Source of the DNA: a virus
Lineage: Duplodnaviria; Heunggongvirae; Uroviricota; Caudoviricetes
Reading direction: 5' to 3' (one strand)
Length of the DNA stretch: 17,828 bases
Virus record (IMG/VR): IMGVR_UViG_2563366803_000003
Shown: positions 2,962 through 17,828 of the stretch, in pieces
Position numbering within the stretch: position 1 is the first letter of the stretch
Layout: every line of letters starts with the position of its first letter
The notes under the pieces: model-generated
Told to the model about the DNA's origin: nothing
What the model saw: only the letters and a program-made list of their open reading frames with translations
Databases searched by the model: none
Translations under genes and position numbers: made by a program

Positions 2962-3211
2962 GGTTACCTCTGCTTTTTGAACGCATGTCACGTAACTTCT
3001 TAATGTGTTCTGCCGTTTCGATCTCTTCTGCTATCCGATCTGCATCAGCTTTATTCACAGGTTCAAAGTCATGATTAAAGCGGAACATGCTGGCGATACA
3101 TGTTCTGCCTTTTCGGATGTAGTGAACTTTGTTGTGGGTAGAACGCAGGATTTTGCAGGGAGTGCCGTGGTGGTCGACGTACCAGGTGTTAGGAAAAATG
3201 ATTCTGAACAT
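2933..3211 (-). CDS. Small Cys/His-containing phage protein (92 aa), possibly lambda Ea8.5-like by size and position next to xis
   Basis: ORF with GAGGTG SD 6 nt upstream of ATG at 3211; contains HH..C...H..H...C pattern; lambda Ea8.5 is 93 aa and lies next to xis. Confidence 0.4.
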   Translation of the reverse strand: MFRIIFPNTWYVDHHGTPCKILRSTHNKVHYIRKGRTCIASMFRFNHDFEPVNKADADRIAEEIETAEHIKKLRDMRSKSRGNHGIIQPHTR

Positions 3212-3258
3212 TTTTACACCTCAGTTGGACGATGTTGAAATTTGCTGCTTTGAGGCCA

Positions 3259-3477
3259 TCACAGTCCCCATTGTTTGTTCTTAAGTTCGATCTCCTCCTG
3301 GCAACTTGCACAAGTCCGACAACCCTGAACAGCCAGGCGTCTTCGCTCATCTATCGGATCGCCACACTCACAACAATGAGTTGCGGATACAGTCTGGTAG
3401 TTCTGACGACGCATTTTTATTGCTGTATTGCGCTGTAATTCTTCGATTTCTGATGCTGAATCAATGATGTCTGCCAT
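3259..3477 (-). CDS. TraR/DksA-family C4 zinc-finger protein (72 aa)
   Basis: CxxC-x17-CxxC signature (CCECGDPIDERRRLAVQGCRTCASC) typical of phage TraR/DksA-like proteins. Confidence 0.65.
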   Translation of the reverse strand: MADIIDSASEIEELQRNTAIKMRRQNYQTVSATHCCECGDPIDERRRLAVQGCRTCASCQEEIELKNKQWGL

Positions 3478-3529
3478 CTTCCATTAATCCCTGAATTGTT
3501 GGTTAATACGCTTGAGGATGAATGCGAAT

Positions 3530-3556
3530 AATAAAAAAGGAGCCTGTAGCTCCCTG
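3530..3556 (-). terminator. Possible rho-independent terminator (short GC stem ggagc/gctcc followed by T6 on minus strand)
   Basis: Hairpin 3539-3553 with A-tract 3533-3538 on + strand (= T-tract on minus), 20 nt downstream of the 3576 stop. Confidence 0.35.
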
Positions 3557-3575
3557 ATGATTTTGCTTTTCATGT

Positions 3576-3857
3576 TCATCGCTCCTTAAAGACGCCGTTT
3601 AACATGCCGATCGCCAGACTTAAATGAGTCGGTGTGAATCCCATCAGCGTTACCGTTTCGCGGTGCTTCTTCAGTACGCTACGGCAAATGTCATCGACGT
3701 TTTTATCCGGAAACTGCTGTCTGGCTTTTTTGATTTCAGAGTTAGCCTGACGGGCAATGCTGCGAAGGGCGTTTTCTTGCTGAGGTGTCATTGAACAAGT
3801 CCCATGTCGGCAAGCATAAGCACACAGAATATGAAGCCCGCTGCCAGAAAAATGCAT
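3576..3857 (-). CDS. Hypothetical lambdoid b-region protein (93 aa; alternative start at 3791 gives 72 aa)
   Basis: ORF in the minus-strand early-left gene string between xis and exo; no recognisable motif. Confidence 0.4.
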   Translation of the reverse strand: MHFSGSGLHILCAYACRHGTCSMTPQQENALRSIARQANSEIKKARQQFPDKNVDDICRSVLKKHRETVTLMGFTPTHLSLAIGMLNGVFKER

Positions 3858-3867
3858 TCAGTGGTTG

Positions 3868-4059
3868 TCATACCTGGTCTCTCTCATCTGCTTCTGCTTT
3901 CGCCACCATCATTTCCAGCTTTTGTGAAAAGGATGCGGCTAACGTATGAAATTCTTCGTCTGTTTCTACTGGTATTGGCACAAACCTGACTCCAATTTGA
4001 GCGAGGCTATGTGCCATCTCGATACTCGTTCTTAACTCAACGGGAGATGCTTTGTGCAT
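3868..4059 (-). CDS. Small lambdoid early protein, 63 aa (lambda orf63-like by size and position)
   Basis: GGGAG SD upstream of ATG at 4059; same orientation and tight packing with exo-proximal genes. Confidence 0.45.
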   Translation of the reverse strand: MHKASPVELRTSIEMAHSLAQIGVRFVPIPVETDEEFHTLAASFSQKLEMMVAKAEADERDQV

Positions 4060-4220
4060 ACAGCTCCCCGTTTATTATTTATCTCCTCAGCCAGCCGCTG
4101 TGCTTTCAGTGGATTTCTGATAACAGAAAGGCCGGGAAATACCCAGCCTCGCTTTGTAATGGAGTAGACGAAAGTGATCGCGCCTACCCGGATATTATCG
4201 TGAGGATGCGTCATCGCCAT
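4032..4220 (-). CDS. Small lambdoid early protein, 62 aa (lambda orf60a-like by position immediately upstream of exo)
   Basis: ORF overlapping exo start region; GGGGAG upstream of ATG at 4220. Confidence 0.45.
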
Positions 4221-4891
4221 TGCTCCCCAAATACAAAACCAATTTCAGCCAGTGCCTCGTCCATTTTTTCGATGAACTCCGGCACCATCTCGTCAAAACT
4301 CGCCATGTACTTTTCATTCCGCTCAATCACGACATAATGCAGGCCTTCACGCTTCATGCGCGGGTCATAGTTGGCAAAGTACCAGGCATCTTTTCGCGTC
4401 ACCCACATGCTGTACTGCACCTGGGCCATGTAAGCCGATTTTATTGCCTCGAAACCACCGAGCCGGAATTTCATGAAATCCCGGGAGGTAAACGGGCATT
4501 TCAGTTCAAGGCCGTTGCCGTCACTGCATAAACCATCGGGAGAGCAGGCGGTGCGCATACTTTCGTCGCGATAGATGATCGGGGATTCAGCAATATTCAC
4601 GCCGGAAGTGAATTCAAACAGGGTTCTGGCGTCGTTCTCGTACTGTTTTCCCCAGGCCAGCGCCTTAGCATTAACTTCCGGAGCCACACCGGTGCAAACC
4701 TCAGCCAGCAGGGTGTGGAAGTAGGACATTTTCATGTCAGGCCACTTCTTTCCTGAGCGGGGCTTTGCTATCACGTTGTGAACTTCTGAAGCGGTGATGA
4801 CGCCGAGCCGTAATTTGTGCCATGCATCATCCCCCTGTTCGACAGCTCTCACGTCGATCCCGGTACGCTGCAGGATAATGTCCGGTATCAT
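4211..4891 (-). CDS. exo: Lambda-type 5'-3' exonuclease Exo (Red-alpha), 226 aa
   Basis: Translation [65 protein letters not shown]... is near-identical to lambda Exo as recalled; same length. Confidence 0.95.
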
Positions 4892-5673
4892 GCTGCCACC
4901 TTCTGCTCAGTGGCTTTCTGTTTCAGGAATCCAAGAGCTTTCACTGCTTCGGCCTGTGTCATTTCTGACGATGCGCGAATGTCGCGGCGAAATATCTGGG
5001 AACAGAGCGGCAATAAGTCGTCATCCCATGTTTTATCCAGGGCGATCAGCAGAGTGTTAATCTCCTGCATGGTTTCATCGTTAACCGGAGTGATGTCGCG
5101 TTCTGGCTGACGTTCTGCAGTGTATGCAGTATTTTCGACAATGCGCTCGGCTTCATCCTTGTCATAGATACCAGCAAATCCGAAGGCCAGACGGGCACAC
5201 TGAATCATTGTTTTATGCCGTAACATCCGTTTGGGATGCGACTGCCACGGCCCCGTGATTTCTCTGCCTTCGCGGGTTTTGAATGGTTCGCGGCGGCATT
5301 CATCCATCCATTCGGTAACGCAGATCGGATGATTACGGTCCTTGCGGTAAATCCGGCATGTACAGGATTCATTGTCCTGCTCAAAGTCCATGCCATCAAA
5401 CTGCTGGTTTTCATTGATGATGCGGGACCAGCCATCAACGCCCACCACCGGAACAATGCCGTTCTGCTTATCAGGGAAGGCGTAAATTTCTTTCGTCCAC
5501 GGATTAAGGCCGTACTGGTTGGCGACGATCAACAATGCGATGAACTGCGCATCGCTGGCATCACCTTTAAATGCCGTCTGGCGAAGAGTGGTGATCAGTT
5601 CCTGTGGGTCGACAGAATCCATGCCGACACGTTCAGCCAGCTTCCCTGCCAGCGTTGCGAGTGCTGTACTCAT
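4888..5673 (-). CDS. bet: Lambda-type single-strand annealing protein Bet (Red-beta), 261 aa
   Basis: Translation [66 protein letters not shown]... matches lambda Bet; ATGA overlap with exo as in lambda. Confidence 0.95.
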
Positions 5674-6257: not shown

Positions 6258-6529
6258 AAAAACTCCTGCCCGTAAGCTGGGCTGCTGAACATATAGAGAC
6301 TTCTGCGCGTATTCAGGCGGTGGATGGCCGCCGGTTGTCATAACTAAGCCGCCTCGTTGAAGCGACTGAGGTATGAGGTGTTGAGTTGATTTCAGCTGGT
6401 CACACCGACGTTCACGCGTCCGTTTCACCCCTCGCACTCCCCGGAGCCTGCCGAAATTCAAGCTGCGGATCTAAGCGGTCATCGCAACGGTGAATCAGGT
6501 GGTTGCCGTATCGTTGTGTTGTTGCGACA

Positions 6530-6600
6530 TGGTGATAATAGCTATTGCTATTGGTGGTATCAATACTTATTGCTATTGATTGATGTGTTTTGATATTAAC
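6530..6600 (-). promoter_or_regulatory. Predicted pL/oL: minus-strand -35 TTGATA (+ coords 6558-6563) and -10 TATTAT (6535-6540) with 17-bp spacer, overlapped by repeated GCTATTG operator-like motifs
   Basis: Hexamers and spacing read directly; motif TTGCTATTG (6545-6553, 6570-6578) is shared with the cI-cro intergenic region. Confidence 0.4.
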
Positions 6601-6712
6601 TGTTTGATAGCAAAAAGAATTAATTTTGTGACTTGCATCGCATAGCGATAACTGAAGGGAGGTTGTGGTGGTTTTTCGAACGGTTTGTGTGATGAGGGGA
6701 GGGGACAAAAGA

Positions 6713-6745
6713 AAACCCGGCACGGTGGCCGGGACGTTTTATTTC
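6713..6745. terminator. Bidirectional rho-independent terminator (stem cccggc...gccggg, flanked by T-runs on both strands); likely end of the cI operon (tImm-like)
   Basis: aaaacccggcacggtggccgggacgttttatttc immediately after the stop of the 6739-7251 gene. Confidence 0.65.
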
Positions 6746-7251
6746 AAAGAAAAATTATGACTAGCGTATCTTGGAAGAAATTCATATAGTGTTAATGTCT
6801 TAACGCCGTGAGAAGCAGCAGCATCCGGGATCATTATTCTTTTTTTAGGTTTGCCACCGGATGGTTTCTCATGGGTAATAATAGTATATCCATGTGTCAT
6901 CGCATGGGCTATTAAAAAAGCATCTGCTTTTTCATGGCTTGCAAAATCAAACTTTGCCTTTTCGGTAACATCTAATTTAGTTGACCAATTTATTAACTTT
7001 GCATAATTTTCTATTGAACTATGCTCATCTTCGAAGAATGATGATGGTAACTCTTCTTTAATCCATTTACACAATGGATCATCTTTTGCACATAGTTCTT
7101 TTTTTACAGCATTAATGCTATAAATCAGACCATTCATGTGTAAAGCGAGAAGAAAATCCCAAAATATTTTGCAATAATTGAAGTTATATGCAAAGTTTTT
7201 TGCCTCTATGAAGACATTACTATCAATTAAGAATTTTCCATTATGAATCAT
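6739..7251 (-). CDS. DUF4411-type PIN-like putative nuclease (170 aa); candidate effector of a two-gene defense/toxin module
   Basis: Size, N-terminal FLIDSNVFI strand with conserved Asp and later acidic residues fit a PIN-like fold; ATGA start/stop overlap with upstream metallopeptidase gene; AT-rich composition. Confidence 0.6.
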   Translation of the reverse strand: MIHNGKFLIDSNVFIEAKNFAYNFNYCKIFWDFLLALHMNGLIYSINAVKKELCAKDDPLCKWIKEELPSSFFEDEHSSIENYAKLINWSTKLDVTEKAKFDFASHEKADAFLIAHAMTHGYTIITHEKPSGGKPKKRIMIPDAAASHGVKTLTLYEFLPRYASHNFSLK

Positions 7252-8387
7252 AGAGATTCTCGTTTTTTATAAAATTCAACAACTGTATCTGCTTTTACAT
7301 TTAGCAGTACGCCTGCTTCCCTTAATGGTAATTGTTGAGACATTGCTTTGGAAATTATTATATTCGTAAGTTTTGGACTGTTACGAACAGGTAATGTGTT
7401 AAAGAAAGAACCACCATTAGATTCTTTTTTGGGCTTATTGTAAGCTTGATCTTTAATTATCTCCAAAGTGTTTCTTTCTATCAAATCTAATTGTAACGCT
7501 TTGATTGCACAAGCGAAATCACTAACCTTAAATAACTTAGAAACCTCTTTTACTCGATAATAATTATTATCGCTGGATGCATTAAGCCAGAAAGATTTGA
7601 AGAGATTATCAGGCATTAAGATTTCAGCAGCAACTTTATTACAAAAAGATTCTATGTTTTTTTCTGTGTCCCACCCAGAGACTCCATCGACTCCAAGCCA
7701 AAGATGAGCCACCTCATGAAATAATGTAAATACCTGCGCAGATAACGCGTCCGAGCTATTTACAAAAATGATCGGAGCAACGCTATCAGATATACAGAAA
7801 CCACGAAACTCTCGCGTGTCAAGTTTTCTTTTATTATTATTACCCACAACACCATTCTTGAAAACTAATACGCCAGTGTCTTCTATTAGTTTTGCCACTT
7901 TAGAAAAATAGCTCTCAAAAGTGACATTTTTTATCTCTTTTTGTATATCAAAATGTATTGTGTTTGCTATGTCTGTAGCAACAACCTTATAATTTAATTT
8001 TCTATTAAATTTAAATTTACCAATAAAATCGAGTGGATCATCATTACCATTTTCTCTTAAATAGTCTTTGTACCACTCAAGTTTATATTCTATATCATAG
8101 TAAACATCAAAAAAATCTTTTCCTAACTCACGGCTATTTATAGCTTGCCTTAAGTCAGGGATCTTGGGTTTGGCTGGAGTTGGTGGCGTTTCAAGAAATA
8201 AAAAACCGAAAGGGATTCCTCCAATTTTTGCCAGTTTTTCTGCTGCGGATTTACTTACCACTCCGTTAAGAAATTTATTAATCTTTTTGGGCATGACTTG
8301 GTCAGCAAGAGTTTCGATAGAAACTCCTTGAGAATTTGCTATCCAATCAATCATCTTCCTAGACAATTGAAATTCAACCGCTGCCAT
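7248..8387 (-). CDS. HTH + ImmA/IrrE-family (COG2856/M78-like) zinc metallopeptidase, 379 aa
   Basis: HExxH motif in FTLFHEVAHLWLG; N-terminal HTH-like segment (IDWIANSQGVSIETLADQV); AGGTGA SD upstream of ATG at 8387; translationally coupled to DUF4411 gene. Confidence 0.7.
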   Translation of the reverse strand: MAAVEFQLSRKMIDWIANSQGVSIETLADQVMPKKINKFLNGVVSKSAAEKLAKIGGIPFGFLFLETPPTPAKPKIPDLRQAINSRELGKDFFDVYYDIEYKLEWYKDYLRENGNDDPLDFIGKFKFNRKLNYKVVATDIANTIHFDIQKEIKNVTFESYFSKVAKLIEDTGVLVFKNGVVGNNNKRKLDTREFRGFCISDSVAPIIFVNSSDALSAQVFTLFHEVAHLWLGVDGVSGWDTEKNIESFCNKVAAEILMPDNLFKSFWLNASSDNNYYRVKEVSKLFKVSDFACAIKALQLDLIERNTLEIIKDQAYNKPKKESNGGSFFNTLPVRNSPKLTNIIISKAMSQQLPLREAGVLLNVKADTVVEFYKKRESL

Positions 8388-8516
8388 GTTATCACCTAGT
8401 TAAAAAAAACTATTATTCAACAATTATTGTTGTGCACCTGATAGCTAACGTCAAGCCTAATTTATTGCCTTACTACAGTAAGCTGAAAAGCGAAGTGCAT
8501 AATTTTGTTCTGATTT

Positions 8517-9209
8517 CTACCCATGCTTTCTATATGTCTGCGGCATGCTCCCGATGACTTTCCCGAAGATGAACACGCGGTTCATCTCGTCTTTCTCGAT
8601 CGGGTCCCACGGTGAGTAGCTCTTGTTATCAGAGATAACCAGCAGCTTATCCTTCATCATTTGCAGGCGCTTTACATGGGCGGTGTCGTCATACAGAAAC
8701 GCATAGATACCATCACCGTCGAAAGATTTAACAGTGATATCAACGAACAGAAGATCACCTGGTTCGATCGTTCCTGACATGCTGTCACCGCGTACGTTAA
8801 TGATGCGGATATTTTCTGCCTTCCTGCCATCGAACATGTGACGAGCATCGTCAAACGAGTACTCAACCGAGCGTAGAACTTCTACAAACTCACGGTTGAT
8901 GACTCCCGGCCCGGCACTCACTTCTATATCAAGAACGTCAATCTTGAAGTATTTGGGATGGTTGGCAGTAGGCTTCCCTAATTGTTGACCGTCATTTCTC
9001 ATCGGGCCTATGCCTGATGAGAGCCACTCTGTTCGAACACCCAATGCATTAGCTATTTCAACAATTTTTGTTGAGCCGCGCGCGTTGCCGCTTGTCAGTC
9101 TCCAGATTGTGGGTTGAGCTACCCCAGACGCCTTTGCAAGAGCGCCTTGAGACATTCCAGATTGTTCCATCGCTAGGTTTAAGCGATCAGCAAGAGTTTC
9201 TTTTTTCAT
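8517..9209 (-). CDS. cI: cI-type prophage repressor (N-terminal XRE HTH + C-terminal S24/LexA-like autopeptidase), about 230 aa, leaderless
   Basis: HTH segment LADRLNLAMEQSGMSQGALAKASGVAQPTIWRL; S24 peptidase signature around GDSMSGTIEPGDLLFVD with downstream Lys (HVKRL); ATG at 9209 lies 7 nt after a -10 hexamer. Confidence 0.85.
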   Translation of the reverse strand: MKKETLADRLNLAMEQSGMSQGALAKASGVAQPTIWRLTSGNARGSTKIVEIANALGVRTEWLSSGIGPMRNDGQQLGKPTANHPKYFKIDVLDIEVSAGPGVINREFVEVLRSVEYSFDDARHMFDGRKAENIRIINVRGDSMSGTIEPGDLLFVDITVKSFDGDGIYAFLYDDTAHVKRLQMMKDKLLVISDNKSYSPWDPIEKDEMNRVFIFGKVIGSMPQTYRKHG

Positions 9210-9319
9210 AAGTTTTAATTTATACGCTTGCGTATTGATGGTCAAAACACGTTTTGCTATTGTTATGATTAATACGCATTGCTATTATTTATTCATTGCA
9301 ATACCAATAGGAATTGATA
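9210..9319. promoter_or_regulatory. Divergent immunity control region. Predicted pRM on minus strand (-35 TTGACC at + 9240-9245, -10 TAAATT at 9217-9222, leaderless cI) and pR on plus strand (-35 TTGTTA 9260-9265, -10 TATTAT 9283-9288); operator-like repeats TTGCTATT and palindromes
   Basis: Hexamers and 17-bp spacings read directly; motif shared with 6540-6580. Confidence 0.5.
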
Positions 9320-9547
9320 ATGACAAATCAAACCATTCAACTCGCAATCAGTATTACAGGTAGTCAAAAACGACTGGCAGATCTATGCGGTGTAGCCCAA
9401 CCCACTGTTTGGCGTTGGCTACACGGTGGCGGAATTGATGCCCGCTATGTAATGAAAATTGTCTCAGCCACTGGTGGAAAGATTAAACCAGCAGATATTC
9501 GTCCCGACCTCGCACCATTGTTTAACGCGAGTAATTCTGCCGCCTAA
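9320..9547 (+). CDS. cro: Cro-like HTH regulator of the YdaS family (about 75 aa)
   Basis: HTH segment GSQKRLADLCGVAQPTVWRWL; AGGAA SD 6 nt upstream of ATG 9320; divergent from cI. Confidence 0.7.
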   Translation: MTNQTIQLAISITGSQKRLADLCGVAQPTVWRWLHGGGIDARYVMKIVSATGGKIKPADIRPDLAPLFNASNSAA

Positions 9548-9571
9548 ACTGCGGCGTTAACTGATAAGGCA

Positions 9572-10117
9572 ATGACTATGCAACCACTTACATACCAACA
9601 GACTAGCGGATTTAGCCCGACTGTGGTGATAAATCGTTCTCAAACAAAACAAGCTCCAGGCCACGAAAAAATCCGTGATGCCGTCCGCGCCTGGTCGGCT
9701 GCAGATAATCAGGATGTTGTTGCCGCACTCATTGTGAATGAGTATCGGGAGCAGGGCGGCGGCACCATCGATTTCCCTGATGATGTCAGCCGTGCACGCC
9801 AGAAGCTGTTCCGCTTCCTCGATAACAAATTCGATTCTGAAAAATACCGAAATAACGTGCGTGAACTGACCCCGGCAATTCTGGCGGTACTACCGCTGGA
9901 ATATCGCGGTTACCTGGTTGAGCAGGATAGCTTTATGGCTAGGTTGGCTGAAATGGAAAAGGAACTCAGTGAGGCAAAACAGGCTGTCATTCTCAACGCA
10001 CCACGCCACCAGAAACTGAAGGAGATGAGTGAAGGCATTGTGTCGATGTTTCGAGTGGACCCGGATCTGGCTGGTCCATTGATGGCGATGGTCACCACCA
10101 TGCTGGGGGCAATATGA
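9572..10117 (+). CDS. YdaT-family protein (181 aa), occupying the cII position
   Basis: Recalled resemblance (..EYREQGGG.., ..LTPAILAVLP..) to Rac YdaT-type proteins; always paired with YdaS-type cro; position between cro and O. Confidence 0.5.
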   Translation: MTMQPLTYQQTSGFSPTVVINRSQTKQAPGHEKIRDAVRAWSAADNQDVVAALIVNEYREQGGGTIDFPDDVSRARQKLFRFLDNKFDSEKYRNNVRELTPAILAVLPLEYRGYLVEQDSFMARLAEMEKELSEAKQAVILNAPRHQKLKEMSEGIVSMFRVDPDLAGPLMAMVTTMLGAI

Positions 10118-12197: not shown

Positions 12198-12530
12198 ATG
12201 AACCCTTATATTTATCTTGGTGGTGCAATACTTGCAGAGGTCATTGGTACAACCTTAATGAAGTTTTCAGAAGGTTTTACACGGTTATGGCCATCTGTTG
12301 GTACAATTATTTGTTATTGTGCATCATTCTGGTTATTAGCTCAGACGCTGGCTTATATTCCTACAGGGATTGCTTATGCTATCTGGTCAGGAGTCGGTAT
12401 TGTCCTGATTAGTTTACTGTCATGGGGATTTTTCGGCCAACGGCTGGACCTGCCAGCCATTATAGGCATGATGTTGATTTGTGCCGGTGTGTTGGTTATT
12501 AATTTATTGTCACGAAGCACACCACATTAA
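12198..12530 (+). CDS. emrE: EmrE small multidrug-resistance efflux transporter, 110 aa (prophage moron)
   Basis: Translation MNPYIYLGGAILAEVIGTTLMKFSEGFTRLWPSVGTIICYCASFWLLAQTLAYIPTGIAYAIWSGVGIVLISLLSWGFFGQRLDLPAIIGMMLICAGVL... matches EmrE; AGGAAAG SD. Confidence 0.95.
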   Translation: MNPYIYLGGAILAEVIGTTLMKFSEGFTRLWPSVGTIICYCASFWLLAQTLAYIPTGIAYAIWSGVGIVLISLLSWGFFGQRLDLPAIIGMMLICAGVLVINLLSRSTPH

Positions 12531-12550
12531 AATAATTTGTTTCTAAACGA

Positions 12551-12590
12551 CTAAAATATGGAGGCTCTTATATTTATATGAGCCTCGTTT
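12551..12590 (+). terminator. Rho-independent terminator downstream of emrE (stem gaggctc...gagcctc followed by T-rich tract)
   Basis: Hairpin 12551-12576, T-run 12577-12590. Confidence 0.7.
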
Positions 12591-12784
12591 TATGCTTTTT
12601 GTTAATGTCTTTATTTTTTATGTATTCTTTTGTGCTTTCAAGATTATGGCGTAAGAAAATTGCAATACGATTATTGTTGTATATTCAAGATAATGTGACC
12701 TTAATTGTCTTTTTAAATAAAAATTAAACAAAAATTATATCCCACCACTAAGGTTTATAAAAGCATACGTTAGCAGGTGTCACC

Positions 12785-13624
12785 ATGAAAAAAGCCATAG
12801 CATATATGCGATTTTCATCACCAGGTCAGATGTCTGGTGACTCATTAAACCGACAGAGAAGACTTATTGCTGAATGGTTAAAGGTAAATAGTGATTATTA
12901 TCTTGATACCATAACATATGAAGATTTAGGATTAAGTGCATTCAAAGGAAAGCATGCACAATCAGGAGCTTTTTCGGAATTTTTAGATGCTATAGAGCAT
13001 GGTTATATATTGCCAGGAACTACATTGTTAGTTGAAAGTCTGGACAGACTTTCAAGAGAAAAAGTCGGTGAAGCGATTGAACGTCTGAAATTGATTTTGA
13101 ATCACGGTATTGATGTTATAACTCTTTGCGACAATACAGTCTATAATATTGACTCTTTGAATGAGCCATATTCATTAATAAAAGCCATACTTATAGCACA
13201 AAGGGCAAATGAAGAAAGCGAGATAAAGTCAAGTCGGGTTAAATTATCATGGAAGAAAAAACGGCAGGATGCAATGGAATCAGGTACGATTATGACGGCG
13301 TCTTGTCCGAGATGGCTCTCCTTAGATGACAAAAGAACGGCTTTTGTTCCAGACCCCGACAGGGTGAAAACTATTGAGCTAATTTTTAAACTCAGGATGG
13401 AAAGGCGCTCATTGAATGCAATAGCCAAGTATTTAAATGATCATGCTGTAAAGAATTTCTCAGGAAAAGAAAGTGCATGGGGACCTTCTGTAATTGAAAA
13501 ATTATTAGCGAATAAAGCTCTGATAGGTATATGCGTACCTTCATATCGTGCAAGAGGGAAAGGGATAAGTGAAATCGCTGGCTATTATCCCAGAGTTATA
13601 TCAGATGATTTGTTTTACGCTGTA
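12785..13624 (+). pseudogene. ybcK: ybcK-like serine recombinase, truncated after about 280 codons by IS1
   Basis: N-terminal resolvase-type catalytic domain (AIAYMRFSSPGQMSGDSLNRQRR... with catalytic Ser), reading frame runs into IS1 left terminus at 13625. Confidence 0.8.
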
Positions 13625-13639
13625 GGTAATGACTCCAAC

Positions 13640-14143
13640 TTATTGATAGTGTTTTATGTTCAGATAATGCCCGATGACTTTGTCATGCAGCTCCACCGAT
13701 TTTGAAAACGACAGCGACTTCCGTCCCAGCCGTGCCAGGTGCTGCCTCAGATTCAGGTTATGCCGCTCAATTCGCTGCGTATATCGCTTGCTGATTACGT
13801 GCAGCTTTCCCTTCAGGCGGGATTCATACAGCGGCCAGCCATCCGTCATCCATATCACCACGTCAAAGGGTGACAGCAGGCTCATAAGACGCCCCAGCGT
13901 CGCCATAGTGCGTTCACCGAATACGTGCGCAACAACCGTCTTCCGGAGACTGTCATACGCGTAAAACAGCCAGCGCTGGCGCGATTTAGCCCCGACATAG
14001 CCCCACTGTTCGTCCATTTCCGCGCAGACGATGACGTCACTGCCCGGCTGTATGCGCGAGGTTACCGACTGCGGCCTGAGTTTTTTAAGTGACGTAAAAT
14101 CGTGTTGAGGCCAACGCCCATAATGCGGGCTGTTGCCCGGCAT
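13640..14143 (-). CDS. insB: IS1 InsB (the longer 194-aa ORF in the track is the out-of-frame upstream extension used for InsAB' frameshifting)
   Basis: Same frame and sequence as copy A InsB, with one amino-acid difference (H vs R). Confidence 0.93.
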
Positions 14144-14337
14144 CCAACGCCATTCATGGCCATATCTATGATTTTCTGGTGCGTACCGGGTTGAGAAGCG
14201 GTGTAAGTGAACTGCAGTTGCCATGTTTTACGGCAGTGAGAGCAGAGATAGCGCTGATGTCCGGCGGTGCTTTTGCCGTTACGCACCACCCCGTCAGTAG
14301 CTGAACAGGAGGGACAGCTGATAGAAACAGAAGCCAC
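14062..14337 (-). CDS. insA: IS1 InsA
   Basis: Identical protein to copy A InsA. Confidence 0.95.
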
Positions 14338-15306: not shown

Positions 15307-16389
15307 TTAGAACTGGTAAACCATACCTACAGCAACGATATCATCGGTAGCAACGCCAGATGCTTTCGTGAAATCGCTCTTATCAATCAGGTTGATTTTG
15401 TAGTCAACAAAAGTGGACATATTTTTGTTGAAGTAATAGGTTGCACCTACATCAACATATTCAACCAGGTCCTGATCACCCCAAACACCCAAGTCTTTTC
15501 CTTTAGAATGCAGGTAAGCAACGGATGGACGCAGGCCGAAGTCGAACTGATATTGTGCAACAGCTTCGAAGTTTTGTGCTTTGTTGGCAATATGGTTATT
15601 ACCAAAAACAGTCATGTTCTGGGTTTCAGAATAGGTGGTGGCCAGATAGATGTTGTTCGCATCATATTTCAGACCAGCTGCCCATACTTCAGCATTTTGA
15701 CCAGAAGCATTCAGACCGTTGTTACCGTAGATAACCTGATTATTAGTGCGATCAGATTTAGCATAGGTTGCACCTACACCGAATCCTTCATACTCATAAG
15801 TAGTGGAGAAACCGAAACCATCACCATTAGCTTCAGTTACGTCAGTGCGGTCATTTTTACCCTGATACTGAGCAGCAAAGTTCAGACCATCAACCAGACC
15901 AAAGAAGTCGTTGTTACGATAAGTTGCAACACCAGTGGTGCGACCAGTCATGAACACATCTGTTTGAGTCCAAGTGTCACCACCGAATTCTGGCAGGACG
16001 TCAGTCCACGCACCGATGTCGTATGCTACACCGTAGTTACGGCCGTAATCGATGGAGCCGTAGTCACCGAATTTCAGGCCAGCGAAGGCAAGACGGGTTT
16101 TATCTTTGGAGGAACCTTGAGATTCAGCGCGGTTGCCTTTGAATTCATATTCCCACTGACCGAAACCAGTCAGTTGATCGTTGATTTGGGTTTCACCTTT
16201 GAAGCCAAGACGGGCATAAGTAGTATCACCATCATCTGCATCATTAGAGGAGAAGTAGTGCTTAGCATTAACTTTCCCGTACAGATCCAGCTTGTTACTG
16301 TCTTTATTATAAATTTCAGCTGCCTGAGCAGACATCGCCATCAGTACTGATGCAGCTACAGCAGAAATTGCCACTGTTAATTTTTTCAT
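15307..16389 (-). CDS. nmpC: Outer-membrane general porin of the NmpC/OmpD/OmpC family, intact (360 aa with signal peptide)
   Basis: Signal peptide [23 protein letters not shown], beta-barrel porin sequence ending ...VGMVYQF; opposite orientation to the phage late genes (moron). Confidence 0.9.
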
Positions 16390-16978
16390 CGTGAGCCCTT
16401 TTTTTTGAACTATTATTAAAAAATGATGTCACTGCGCGATAAATATTCATCTAATCAATGTGATTATTTCAAGATGTAAGTTTTAGTTTCTCATTTAATT
16501 TGTGAAGTAGATCTCTATTTTTATCTGAACTTTTTCTATCGAAACCTATTTATGGCTCTTATTTGAACAAAAATAAACCTATTAGCTAATTTATATTAAT
16601 GGCTGTTATTTATGGGGGGGTCTATAATTCGATGGTTTAATTTAAATTAACTAAAAATAACGCCGGAAATTATTTATTGGTTATTTGTTGAGGTTTTCTT
16701 ATGTATTTGTGGTGGTGTTTTGAACACTCGGTAGCATTCTCATAAATATCATTCAGTGGTTTACGTACGTAAAAAATTGGTTATGCTGTTAAGAGTGGTT
16801 ACTTCGTCACACAGCTTAAACCCGCCGTCGAGCTGGTTTTTCCATTTTTTGAGTCTCGATATTAGCTGATAACTCAATACCTGAGTTATTCACTGACTCC
16901 GAGTCTGTTACGTTTCTGCTTTTTTGCGATACGTTGTATTCCCTCAATTTACACCCGCTTTGTCTGCGAGGTGGGGTT

Positions 16979-17194
16979 ATGAAATCCATGGATAAGTTAA
17001 CAACGGGTGTCGCCTATGGCACCTCAGCAGGTAGTGCCGGTTACTGGTTTTTACAGCTGCTCGATAAAGTCACGCCCTCACAGTGGGCAGCAATAGGTGT
17101 GCTGGGTAGCCTGGTATTTGGCCTGCTGACGTACCTGACAAACCTTTATTTCAAGATTAAAGAAGATAAGCGCAAGGCTGCGAGAGGTGAATAA
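16979..17194 (+). CDS. essD: Class II holin / pinholin of the S21 family (71 aa) with dual-start motif MKSMDK
   Basis: Translation [71 protein letters not shown]; two TM segments; stop overlaps endolysin start (TAATG). Confidence 0.85.
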
Positions 17195-17599
17195 TGCCTC
17201 CATCATTACGAAAAGCCGTTGCTGCTGCTATTGGTGGCGGAGCAATTGCTATAGCATCAGTGTTAATCACTGGCCCAAGTGGTAACGATGGTCTGGAAGG
17301 TGTCAGCTACATACCATACAAAGATATTGTTGGTGTATGGACCGTATGTCACGGGCATACAGGAAAAGACATCATGCTCGGTAAAACGTATACCAAAGCA
17401 GAATGCAAAGCACTCTTGAATAAAGACCTTGCCACTGTCGCCAGACAAATTAACCCATACATCGAAGTCGATATACCGGAAACAACGCGCGGCGCTCTTT
17501 ACTCATTCGTTTACAACGTGGGTGCTGGCAATTTCAGAACATCGACGCTTCTTCGCAAAATAAACCAGGGCGATATCAAAGGCGCATGTGATCAGTTAC
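17194..17599 (+). pseudogene. rrrD: SAR-endolysin (RrrD/R21-like lysozyme) truncated near codon 135 by IS2 insertion
   Basis: N-terminal signal-anchor-release segment [20 protein letters not shown]; lysozyme core; frame continues into the IS2 terminus giving a chimeric tail [16 protein letters not shown]. Confidence 0.8.
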
Positions 17600-17828
17600 T
17601 AGACTGGCCCCCTGAATCTCCAGACAACCAATATCACTTATTTAAGTGATAGTCTTAATACTAGTTTTTAGACTAGTCATTGGAGAACAGATGATTGATG
17701 TCTTAGGGCCGGAGAAACGCAGACGGCGTACCACACAGGAAAAGATCGCAATTGTTCAGCAGAGCTTTGAACCGGGGATGACGGTCTCCCTCGTTGCCCG
17801 GCAACATGGTGTAGCAGCCAGCCAGTTA
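17600..17828 (+). mobile_element. IS2 (IS3 family), terminal part only; continues beyond window
   Basis: Terminus tagactggccccctgaatctccagacaaccaatatcacttaa and downstream orfA (insC) start match IS2 as recalled. Confidence 0.85.
17691..17828 (+). CDS. insC: IS2 OrfA (InsC) transposase N-terminal part, partial at window end
   Basis: Translation [46 protein letters not shown]. Confidence 0.85.

Follow-up and report, generated by a model that had tools for sequence, protein, structure and literature searches.

In prophages, Makarova et al. (2009) linked fusions of a COG2856 protein to an Xre-type regulator with toxins of the PIN and RelE types, and they suggested a three-component toxin–antitoxin (TA) arrangement (PMC2701414). 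In a later computational survey, Matelska et al. (2017) found DUF4411.1 genes downstream of genes in which DUF955 is fused to a helix-turn-helix (HTH) domain, and predicted that these pairs are TA-like (PMC5499597). RosmerTA was subsequently validated as an anti-phage system by Millman et al. (2022); its antitoxin is a Zn-peptidase, its toxin is of unknown function, and a delta-rmrA mutant was not obtainable. The RmrTA system of phage Kita was confirmed by Ernits et al. (2023), who also noted that ImmA antitoxins associate with PIN-like domains, and RipAB (spr1630/spr1629) of Streptococcus pneumoniae, with its essential XRE-HTH and ImmA-like antitoxin, has been assigned to the Rosmer family. 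The present work concerns a two-gene cassette in 17,828 nucleotides (nt) of DNA from a virus of the Caudoviricetes (IMG/VR record IMGVR_UViG_2563366803_000003), the whole of which is referred to here as the window. The cassette lies between the cI repressor gene and a pL-like promoter, and encodes an HTH-like and M78 peptidase protein of 379 amino acids (aa) and a DUF4411 PIN-fold protein of 170 aa. On balance, it is probably a RosmerTA-like TA or abortive-infection module of the HTH-M78 plus DUF4411 family, carried as prophage cargo and expressed in the lysogen. The initial annotation of the window had presented the pair as one that, as far as it was aware, had not been characterized experimentally in a lambdoid immunity region. 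This suggestion of novelty does not stand, since the family was predicted in 2009 and again in 2017, RosmerTA has been validated and the structure of a homologous pair has been solved. With the family already predicted and a homologous complex solved, the locus is thus a well-supported candidate for testing and not the discovery of a new kind of system.

The 379-aa protein matches Pfam Peptidase_M78 (PF06114) over residues 169-291 with an expectation value (E) of 1.2e-13, and is matched over its full length by PHROG 2439, a ‘transcriptional regulator’ family (E 3e-76). The PADLOC models that recognize it comprise capP (E 1e-14) and, weakly, 12 models of RmrA, the RosmerTA antitoxin (best E 6.2e-8), among which PDLC03947 aligns residues 20-314 to positions 23-304 of 383. 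In NCBIfam, only antitox_spr1629 responds, with 24.6 bits, far under its cut-off of 335 bits. The AlphaFold model of the protein has a predicted local distance difference test (pLDDT) score of 89.1, and its best PDB folds are CapP (7t5t) and IrrE (3dti). The zinc site is intact: H224, E225 and H228, which belong to the motif FHEVAHLWLG, as well as E246, C249 and N250, are invariant among 34 homologues of 36-82% identity, and this invariance indicates that the site is under selection. The strict conservation of the HExxH...E site also suggests that catalysis by the peptidase matters and that proteolysis is part of a switch. Of the two domains assigned to this protein in the initial annotation, the M78 peptidase with its FHEVAHLWLG motif is recovered by Pfam. 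No Pfam HTH model matches the N-terminus, so the HTH is recognized by its fold and by its homology to a PDB chain (9vzy_A, see below) only; the fold resembles the XRE HTH regulators C.BclI and C.AhdI, with a probability of ~0.7. The HTH-like segment is followed by a short linker motif, P77-D78-L79-R80, in which D78 and R80 never vary and L or F stands at position 79. The pLDDT of the model there is ~71, and the motif is retained in 9vzy_A as ‘DFRR’.

The 170-aa protein consists of a single domain, Pfam DUF4411 (PF14367; E 1.1e-37), which covers residues 7-161 and profile positions 1-154 of 159, and it also matches PHROG 11126 (E 2e-67). Its AlphaFold model (pLDDT 86.6) is matched by Foldseek, in a PDB copy without 9vzy, to VapC PIN toxins with a probability of 1.0 and template modelling (TM) scores of 0.5-0.69, the top matches being the VapC toxins 3h87, 6a7v, 4chg, 3zvk and 5h4g. 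Four acidic residues (D10, E52, D110 and E128) are invariant in an alignment of 32 sequences, and the active site is thus intact in this protein as well. Pfam and the VapC-like fold agree with the DUF4411 PIN-like identity first proposed. The DUF4411 family comprises 2,052 clusters at 50% identity (E <= 1e-3). A tblastn search of 50,697 GenBank phage records with the window protein returned one metagenomic match, at 27% identity, and no cultured phage with the pair, and literature searches found no functional study of DUF4411 or of the M78–DUF4411 pair. On a 4.6-Mb contig of Enterobacter kobei, a DUF4411 homologue is broken into two open reading frames (ORFs) of 94 aa and 108 aa (P0039/P0040), which points to possible decay of the nuclease gene in some hosts.

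The pairing of the two genes is obligate in the material surveyed. Of the 75 DUF4411 loci in IMG/VR, 71 could be evaluated, and an M78 gene is adjacent in all 71. Stop and start codons overlap by 4 nt in 32 of these loci, by 8 nt in 14 and by 1 nt in 13 (59/71). The same adjacency was seen in all 17 genomic and metagenomic places examined: an M78 gene of 376-388 aa stands directly upstream of every DUF4411 homologue examined in Klebsiella, Rosenbergiella, Providencia and metagenomic contigs, down to 32% identity, and the reverse start, from M78 homologues in Pasteurella and Delftia, leads to a DUF4411 gene directly downstream. In the window, the ATGA overlap noticed earlier is indeed present, the start ATG of the DUF4411 gene (7251-7249) being interlocked with the stop TGA of the M78 gene (7250-7248), as expected for translational coupling. 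Moreover, a structure of a homologous pair has been deposited: in PDB 9vzy, a 393-aa protein named ‘HTH cro/C1-type domain-containing protein’ is present in three chains and a 162-aa protein named ‘DUF4411 family protein’ in six, and PDB 9vzz contains the ‘DUF4411 family protein’ alone. A profile of the M78 alignment matches 9vzy_A with E 1.7e-22 over positions 10-334 of 378, and a profile of the DUF4411 alignment matches 9vzy_D and 9vzz_A with E 9e-14; a phmmer search of 9vzy with the 379-aa window protein alone covers residues 167-265 only (E 8e-7), the relationship being a distant one. The chain content of 9vzy indicates that the related pair forms a direct complex, in which the nuclease chains are twice as numerous as the peptidase chains. 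No paper citing 9vzy or 9vzz was found in literature searches. The strict pairing, the 9vzy complex and the weak RmrA matches, together with the TA-rich cargo of the slot described below, favor the earlier idea of a TA-like protease or sensor that partners a nuclease effector.

The genomic surroundings of the pair vary. In ~15 of 38 non-redundant viral clusters, an S24 repressor is found no more than two ORFs upstream of the pair, and other copies adjoin P2 tail genes, DarT plus Macro, or Rz; some copies on non-phage islands have an integrase as neighbor. Prophages of other genera have the pair between the repressor, which it directly follows, and the early-left genes, and both the repressors and the replication modules differ. 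On the viral contig L097 (3037-6489), ORFs matching DarT and Macro (DarTG-like) are apparently the two ORFs immediately upstream of the pair, a placement taken from the aggregate Pfam scan and the ORF sequence and not from a per-ORF table. On the metagenomic contig L014 (5856-13238), N6_N4_Mtase and ResIII, which are restriction–modification (RM)-like, lie downstream of the pair. These two neighborhoods resemble small defense islands.

In the window itself, the two co-oriented minus-strand genes do occupy the rexAB-equivalent position, bounded on one side by the stop codon of cI and on the other by the backbone terminator that precedes pL, and cI is immediately upstream of the cassette (Table 1; RefSeq gives a shorter cI form, 8517-9209). 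The lambdoid phages 4A7, PhiR47_2 and PhiR5_1 have flanks 89-98% identical to those of the window, with other genes in between. Similarity to these phages, which bear other cargo, ends at 6734 and resumes at 8517, and the cassette is accordingly delimited as the 1,782 bp between these points. The hairpin described as a bidirectional terminator of the gene pair does exist, and by the same borders it forms part of the conserved phage backbone and not of the cassette. The AT-richness of the cassette was also confirmed: its guanine-plus-cytosine (GC) content is 0.333 over 6735-8516, versus 0.506 and 0.479 in the 2-kb flanks. A candidate sigma-70-like promoter falls within the 129-nt gap that follows cI, and its -35 hexamer and a CACAACAAT element are kept upstream of the Klebsiella and Rosenbergiella cassette copies despite differing flanks, which argues that the promoter travels with the cassette. 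The terminator scan predicted no hairpin terminator in the gap between cI and the peptidase gene; from cI to the end of the cassette, its minus-strand hits were limited to 7816..7802, which is within the peptidase gene, and to the hairpin of the backbone at 6733..6716. Read-through from cI is thus plausible, and would transcribe the cassette genes as well.

Table 1. Features of the cassette and of the adjoining immunity region (positions in the window)
Feature	Position	Strand	Basis or remark
Exchangeable cargo cassette (own promoter region and two genes)	6735..8516	-	Homology breaks and GC content
HTH-like and Peptidase_M78 (ImmA/IrrE) gene, 379 aa	7248..8387	-	Pfam, PHROG, PADLOC, AlphaFold
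HEVAH zinc-binding and catalytic motif (H224, E225, H228)	7704..7718	-	Third ligand E246 at 7650-7652
Linker motif P77-D78-L79-R80 after the HTH-like segment	8148..8159	-	Conservation; role as docking or cleavage site speculative
DUF4411 PIN-fold gene, 170 aa	6739..7251	-	Pfam, PHROG, AlphaFold/Foldseek
ATGA start/stop overlap (translational coupling)	7248..7251	-	Sequence
Candidate cassette promoter, sigma-70-like, TTGACG-17 nt-AACAAT	8426..8454	-	Consensus scan
Palindrome CAACAATAATTGTTG across the -10 element; weak candidate for an operator	8418..8432		Window only
cI-type repressor (HTH and Peptidase_S24)	8517..9245	-	Pfam S24 (E 1.5e-18), HTH_3
pL-like promoter, TTGATA-17 nt-TATTAT	6535..6563	-	Consensus scan; upstream of kil-gam-bet-exo
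GC-rich backbone hairpin with T-runs (both strands); terminates the immunity transcript	6716..6733		Terminator scan of both strands

In this backbone, the cI–pL slot is a hotspot for cargo, chiefly TA modules. In a survey of the slot by match to window 6300-9300, the backbone was found in 2,220 of 5,426 complete Escherichia coli genomes and the cassette in only 33, in all cases at >=99% identity and on the chromosome. The alternative cargo includes a HipA kinase with DUF3037, an MqsA-family antitoxin with a SecB chaperone, Panacea-domain pairs and a hypothetical protein with an ASCH protein; DUF6932, DUF7946, DUF6414 and a BamE-like gene also occur there, and some slots are empty. The slot of phages 4A7, PhiR47_2 and PhiR5_1 holds either the hypothetical and ASCH pair, annotated GevT/GevA, or HipA/HipD. 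Literature searches found no source for the GevT/GevA annotations of the PhiR phages.

Several observations weigh against a defensive TA module. The 170-aa protein has no match to any PADLOC model (library v2.0.0, E <= 0.1). The palindrome CAACAATAATTGTTG is not palindromic in the related Klebsiella and Rosenbergiella cassettes, the two that were compared; lacking conservation there, it is at most a weak candidate for an autoregulatory operator. The carrier looks like a DLP12-like prophage at argU (tRNA-Arg-tct 1479-1555, integrase 1571-2734) with IS1 transposase ORFs at 1-504 and 13640-14224, the second of which truncates a serine recombinase (12785-13705); a porin gene (15307-16389) and then a lysozyme gene (17194-17649) follow. 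The two IS1 copies and the truncated recombinase suggest that this prophage is decayed, and it is probably defective. A 100%-identical copy of the cassette is found in strain PM06121, in a prophage at icd. Retention of the cassette in an apparently degraded carrier could reflect addiction and not defense. The pair would then be a selfish module that stabilizes the prophage or the immunity region by killing the cells that lose it, and would give no protection against other phages. Such a role would be compatible with the TA-like architecture and the homologous complex, with a cassette that is 100% intact in an apparently decayed, IS1-ridden prophage, and with the copies that adjoin integrases on non-phage islands. 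It is nevertheless unlikely, while retaining some appreciable weight: the alternative cargo of the slot is mostly of TA types with a reported or suspected role in defense (HipA, MqsA plus SecB, Panacea), copies of the pair stand beside DarTG and RM-like genes, and the RosmerTA relatives defend against phages. Addiction is also difficult to reconcile with the toleration of an IS1 insertion in the antitoxin gene.

The latter insertion bears on the antitoxin itself. In E. coli ATCC 43886 (NZ_CP024256) and in E2528-C1, the M78 gene is interrupted by IS1 at codon ~180, where 9 bp of the target are duplicated (window equivalent ~7843-7851; contig L002 of ATCC 43886, 3001-5426), and the HTH and linker portion (1-182) is thus parted from the peptidase portion (180-379). 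The DUF4411 gene beside the split gene is the common intact allele (M39I only), which occurs with an intact M78 partner in STEC316 and CV839-06. An IS1-split M78 gene beside an intact DUF4411 gene means that loss of the full-length ‘antitoxin’ is tolerated, and these alleles argue against a simple obligatory antitoxin. The tolerance may be due to polarity of the insertion on expression of the toxin, to a functional C-terminal fragment, or to a nuclease that is not toxic alone. The coexistence of the two alleles in two complete genomes also speaks for an arrangement that is no TA system at all, whereby the DUF4411 nuclease does no harm to the host, its action being restricted to invading nucleic acid or dependent on activation, and the M78 protein serves as its transcriptional or proteolytic regulator or as its activator. 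An invariant peptidase active site, for which a passively binding antitoxin has no need, and the protease-controlled regulatory cascade proposed by Makarova et al. (PMC2701414) both suit this arrangement. It is considered improbable in view of the closest folds of the DUF4411 model, which are VapC toxins, and of the 1:2 chain ratio in 9vzy, which resembles that of neutralized TA complexes; furthermore, a polar effect of IS1 is to be expected on the DUF4411 gene, whose translation is coupled to that of the M78 gene, and the rmrA gene of RosmerTA could not be deleted.

The position of the M78 gene directly beside cI, its family membership and its CapP/IrrE-like fold raise the additional question of an anti-repressor, in which the peptidase would cleave the prophage repressor, as in ImmA/ImmR and IrrE/DdrO, and would be needed for induction. 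This role is highly improbable and was rejected: cI bears its own S24 LexA-type autoprotease domain, and the same cI works without the cassette, as near-identical cI genes and flanks lacking it are present in sequenced phages and in ~2,190 E. coli genomes. In addition, the cassette accompanies at least four unrelated repressors, non-S24 ones included, and the peptidase carries an HTH of its own in the same polypeptide and always comes coupled to a PIN nuclease.

For the cassette as a RosmerTA-like TA or abortive-infection module, we infer toxicity of the nuclease, its neutralization, an RNA target, autoregulation, a trigger and protection against phages, which may be combined as follows. Leftward transcription of both genes would start at the sigma-70 promoter of the cassette and probably, in addition, reach them as read-through from cI, and their translation would be coupled. 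The 379-aa protein would bind the DUF4411 PIN nuclease, as a dimer, directly and hold it inactive, and its N-terminal HTH would probably repress the operon. A superinfecting phage might then inactivate or consume the peptidase protein, whereupon the released nuclease would cut RNA, much as VapC toxins cut tRNA or rRNA; translation and growth would stop and the infection would be aborted. Proteolysis may be part of the switch, and its substrate could be the peptidase protein itself, the toxin or a phage protein. One specific version, by analogy to LexA, would make the 379-aa protein an autoproteolytic antitoxin, whose M78 site, on an infection cue, cuts the P-D-[L/F]-R linker of its own or of a neighboring protomer. 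Such a single cut could detach the HTH, derepress the operon and release the PIN dimer. This version is a speculation drawn from conservation and analogy and is rather unlikely to be correct; if true, however, it would represent a mechanism of TA activation not yet demonstrated. Should the cassette prove to be a defense system, it would add a PIN-nuclease branch to the RosmerTA-type ImmA-antitoxin systems, and would offer, in E. coli and a lambdoid prophage, a tractable model in which to study what the peptidase does in ImmA antitoxins, which is unexplained across the class. The cI–pL (rexAB) slot is, in turn, useful for mining prophage-encoded immunity.

Other parts of the window also merit mention. 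The genes in the cro and cII positions (9314-10117) match the Pfam families ‘YdaS_toxin’ (E 1e-14) and ‘YdaT_toxin’ (E 1.5e-29), and these ‘toxin’ names are probably misleading, because by position the genes are Cro-like and CII-like regulators of the immunity region. No N-like antiterminator gene is annotated from the pL-like promoter to kil (6258-6700), a stretch of ~440 bp without a convincing ORF. An N-independent antitermination RNA between pL and kil was considered and rejected, as Rfam gave nothing above threshold and the fold had a z-score of -0.24 versus shuffled sequences. Two further AT-rich patches are evident, one at 12200-13400 (GC ~0.31-0.39), with an emrE-like gene for a small multidrug resistance (SMR) transporter after ren (12198-12530), and an intergenic one at 16200-16800 (GC ~0.28-0.33), upstream of the porin gene.

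The cassette occupies the same slot as lambda rexAB, downstream of cI and up to the immunity terminator that precedes pL, and is likewise placed for expression in the lysogen. In sequence and domains, the two are unrelated: the Pfam, PHROG and PADLOC hits of the cassette are to M78 and DUF4411 only, whereas RexAB is a membrane ion-channel system. The M78 fold with its HExxH...E site is common to the 379-aa protein and to ImmA/ImmR of ICEBs1, IrrE/DdrO of Deinococcus and CapP/CapH of the cyclic-oligonucleotide-based anti-phage signaling system (CBASS). IrrE cleaves DdrO at an L/R bond, and this site resembles the invariant D-[L/F]-R linker of the window protein. ImmA, IrrE and CapP act on a separate repressor and thereby switch on an element, a regulon or CBASS; in the window, by contrast, the HTH is fused to the peptidase, cI is equipped with an S24 protease domain, and a nuclease is the obligate partner. 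A function as a CapP-type CBASS regulator was rejected despite the capP match, as neither the window nor the annotated copy holds CBASS genes (a cGAS/DncV-like nucleotidyltransferase, CD-NTase, plus effector).

The cassette resembles VapBC in its bicistronic organization with the antitoxin gene first, and the DUF4411 protein resembles VapC in fold and acidic active site. The identity to VapC is 12-15%, however, and the partner is a 379-aa metallopeptidase-HTH protein instead of a small VapB (ribbon-helix-helix, AbrB, Phd or short HTH). The toxin of RipAB differs: ClpX-dependent and directed at the DnaN clamp, it does not belong to the PIN proteins. RosmerTA shares with the window pair an antitoxin composed of a Zn-peptidase (ImmA) and an HTH, and a two-gene operon found on mobile elements and phages. 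The toxin of the window is a PIN-fold DUF4411 protein without a recognized RmrT match, whereas the characterized RmrT proteins are membrane-depolarizing or of unknown fold; the proven anti-phage activity is that of RosmerTA, and the RmrA scores of the window protein are weak. Both proteins of PDB 9vzy/9vzz are homologous to the window pair, and the N-terminal ‘FL..PP....DFR’ linker motif and the HExxH region are shared as well. The HTH-DUF955 (COG2856) plus DUF4411.1 family, frequent in prophages, is like the window pair in its domains, gene order and four conserved acidic residues. The studies of Matelska et al. and Makarova et al. on this family were purely computational and did not include the lambdoid rex-slot context, to which the window pair now contributes an E. 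coli instance with defined borders and a promoter of its own.

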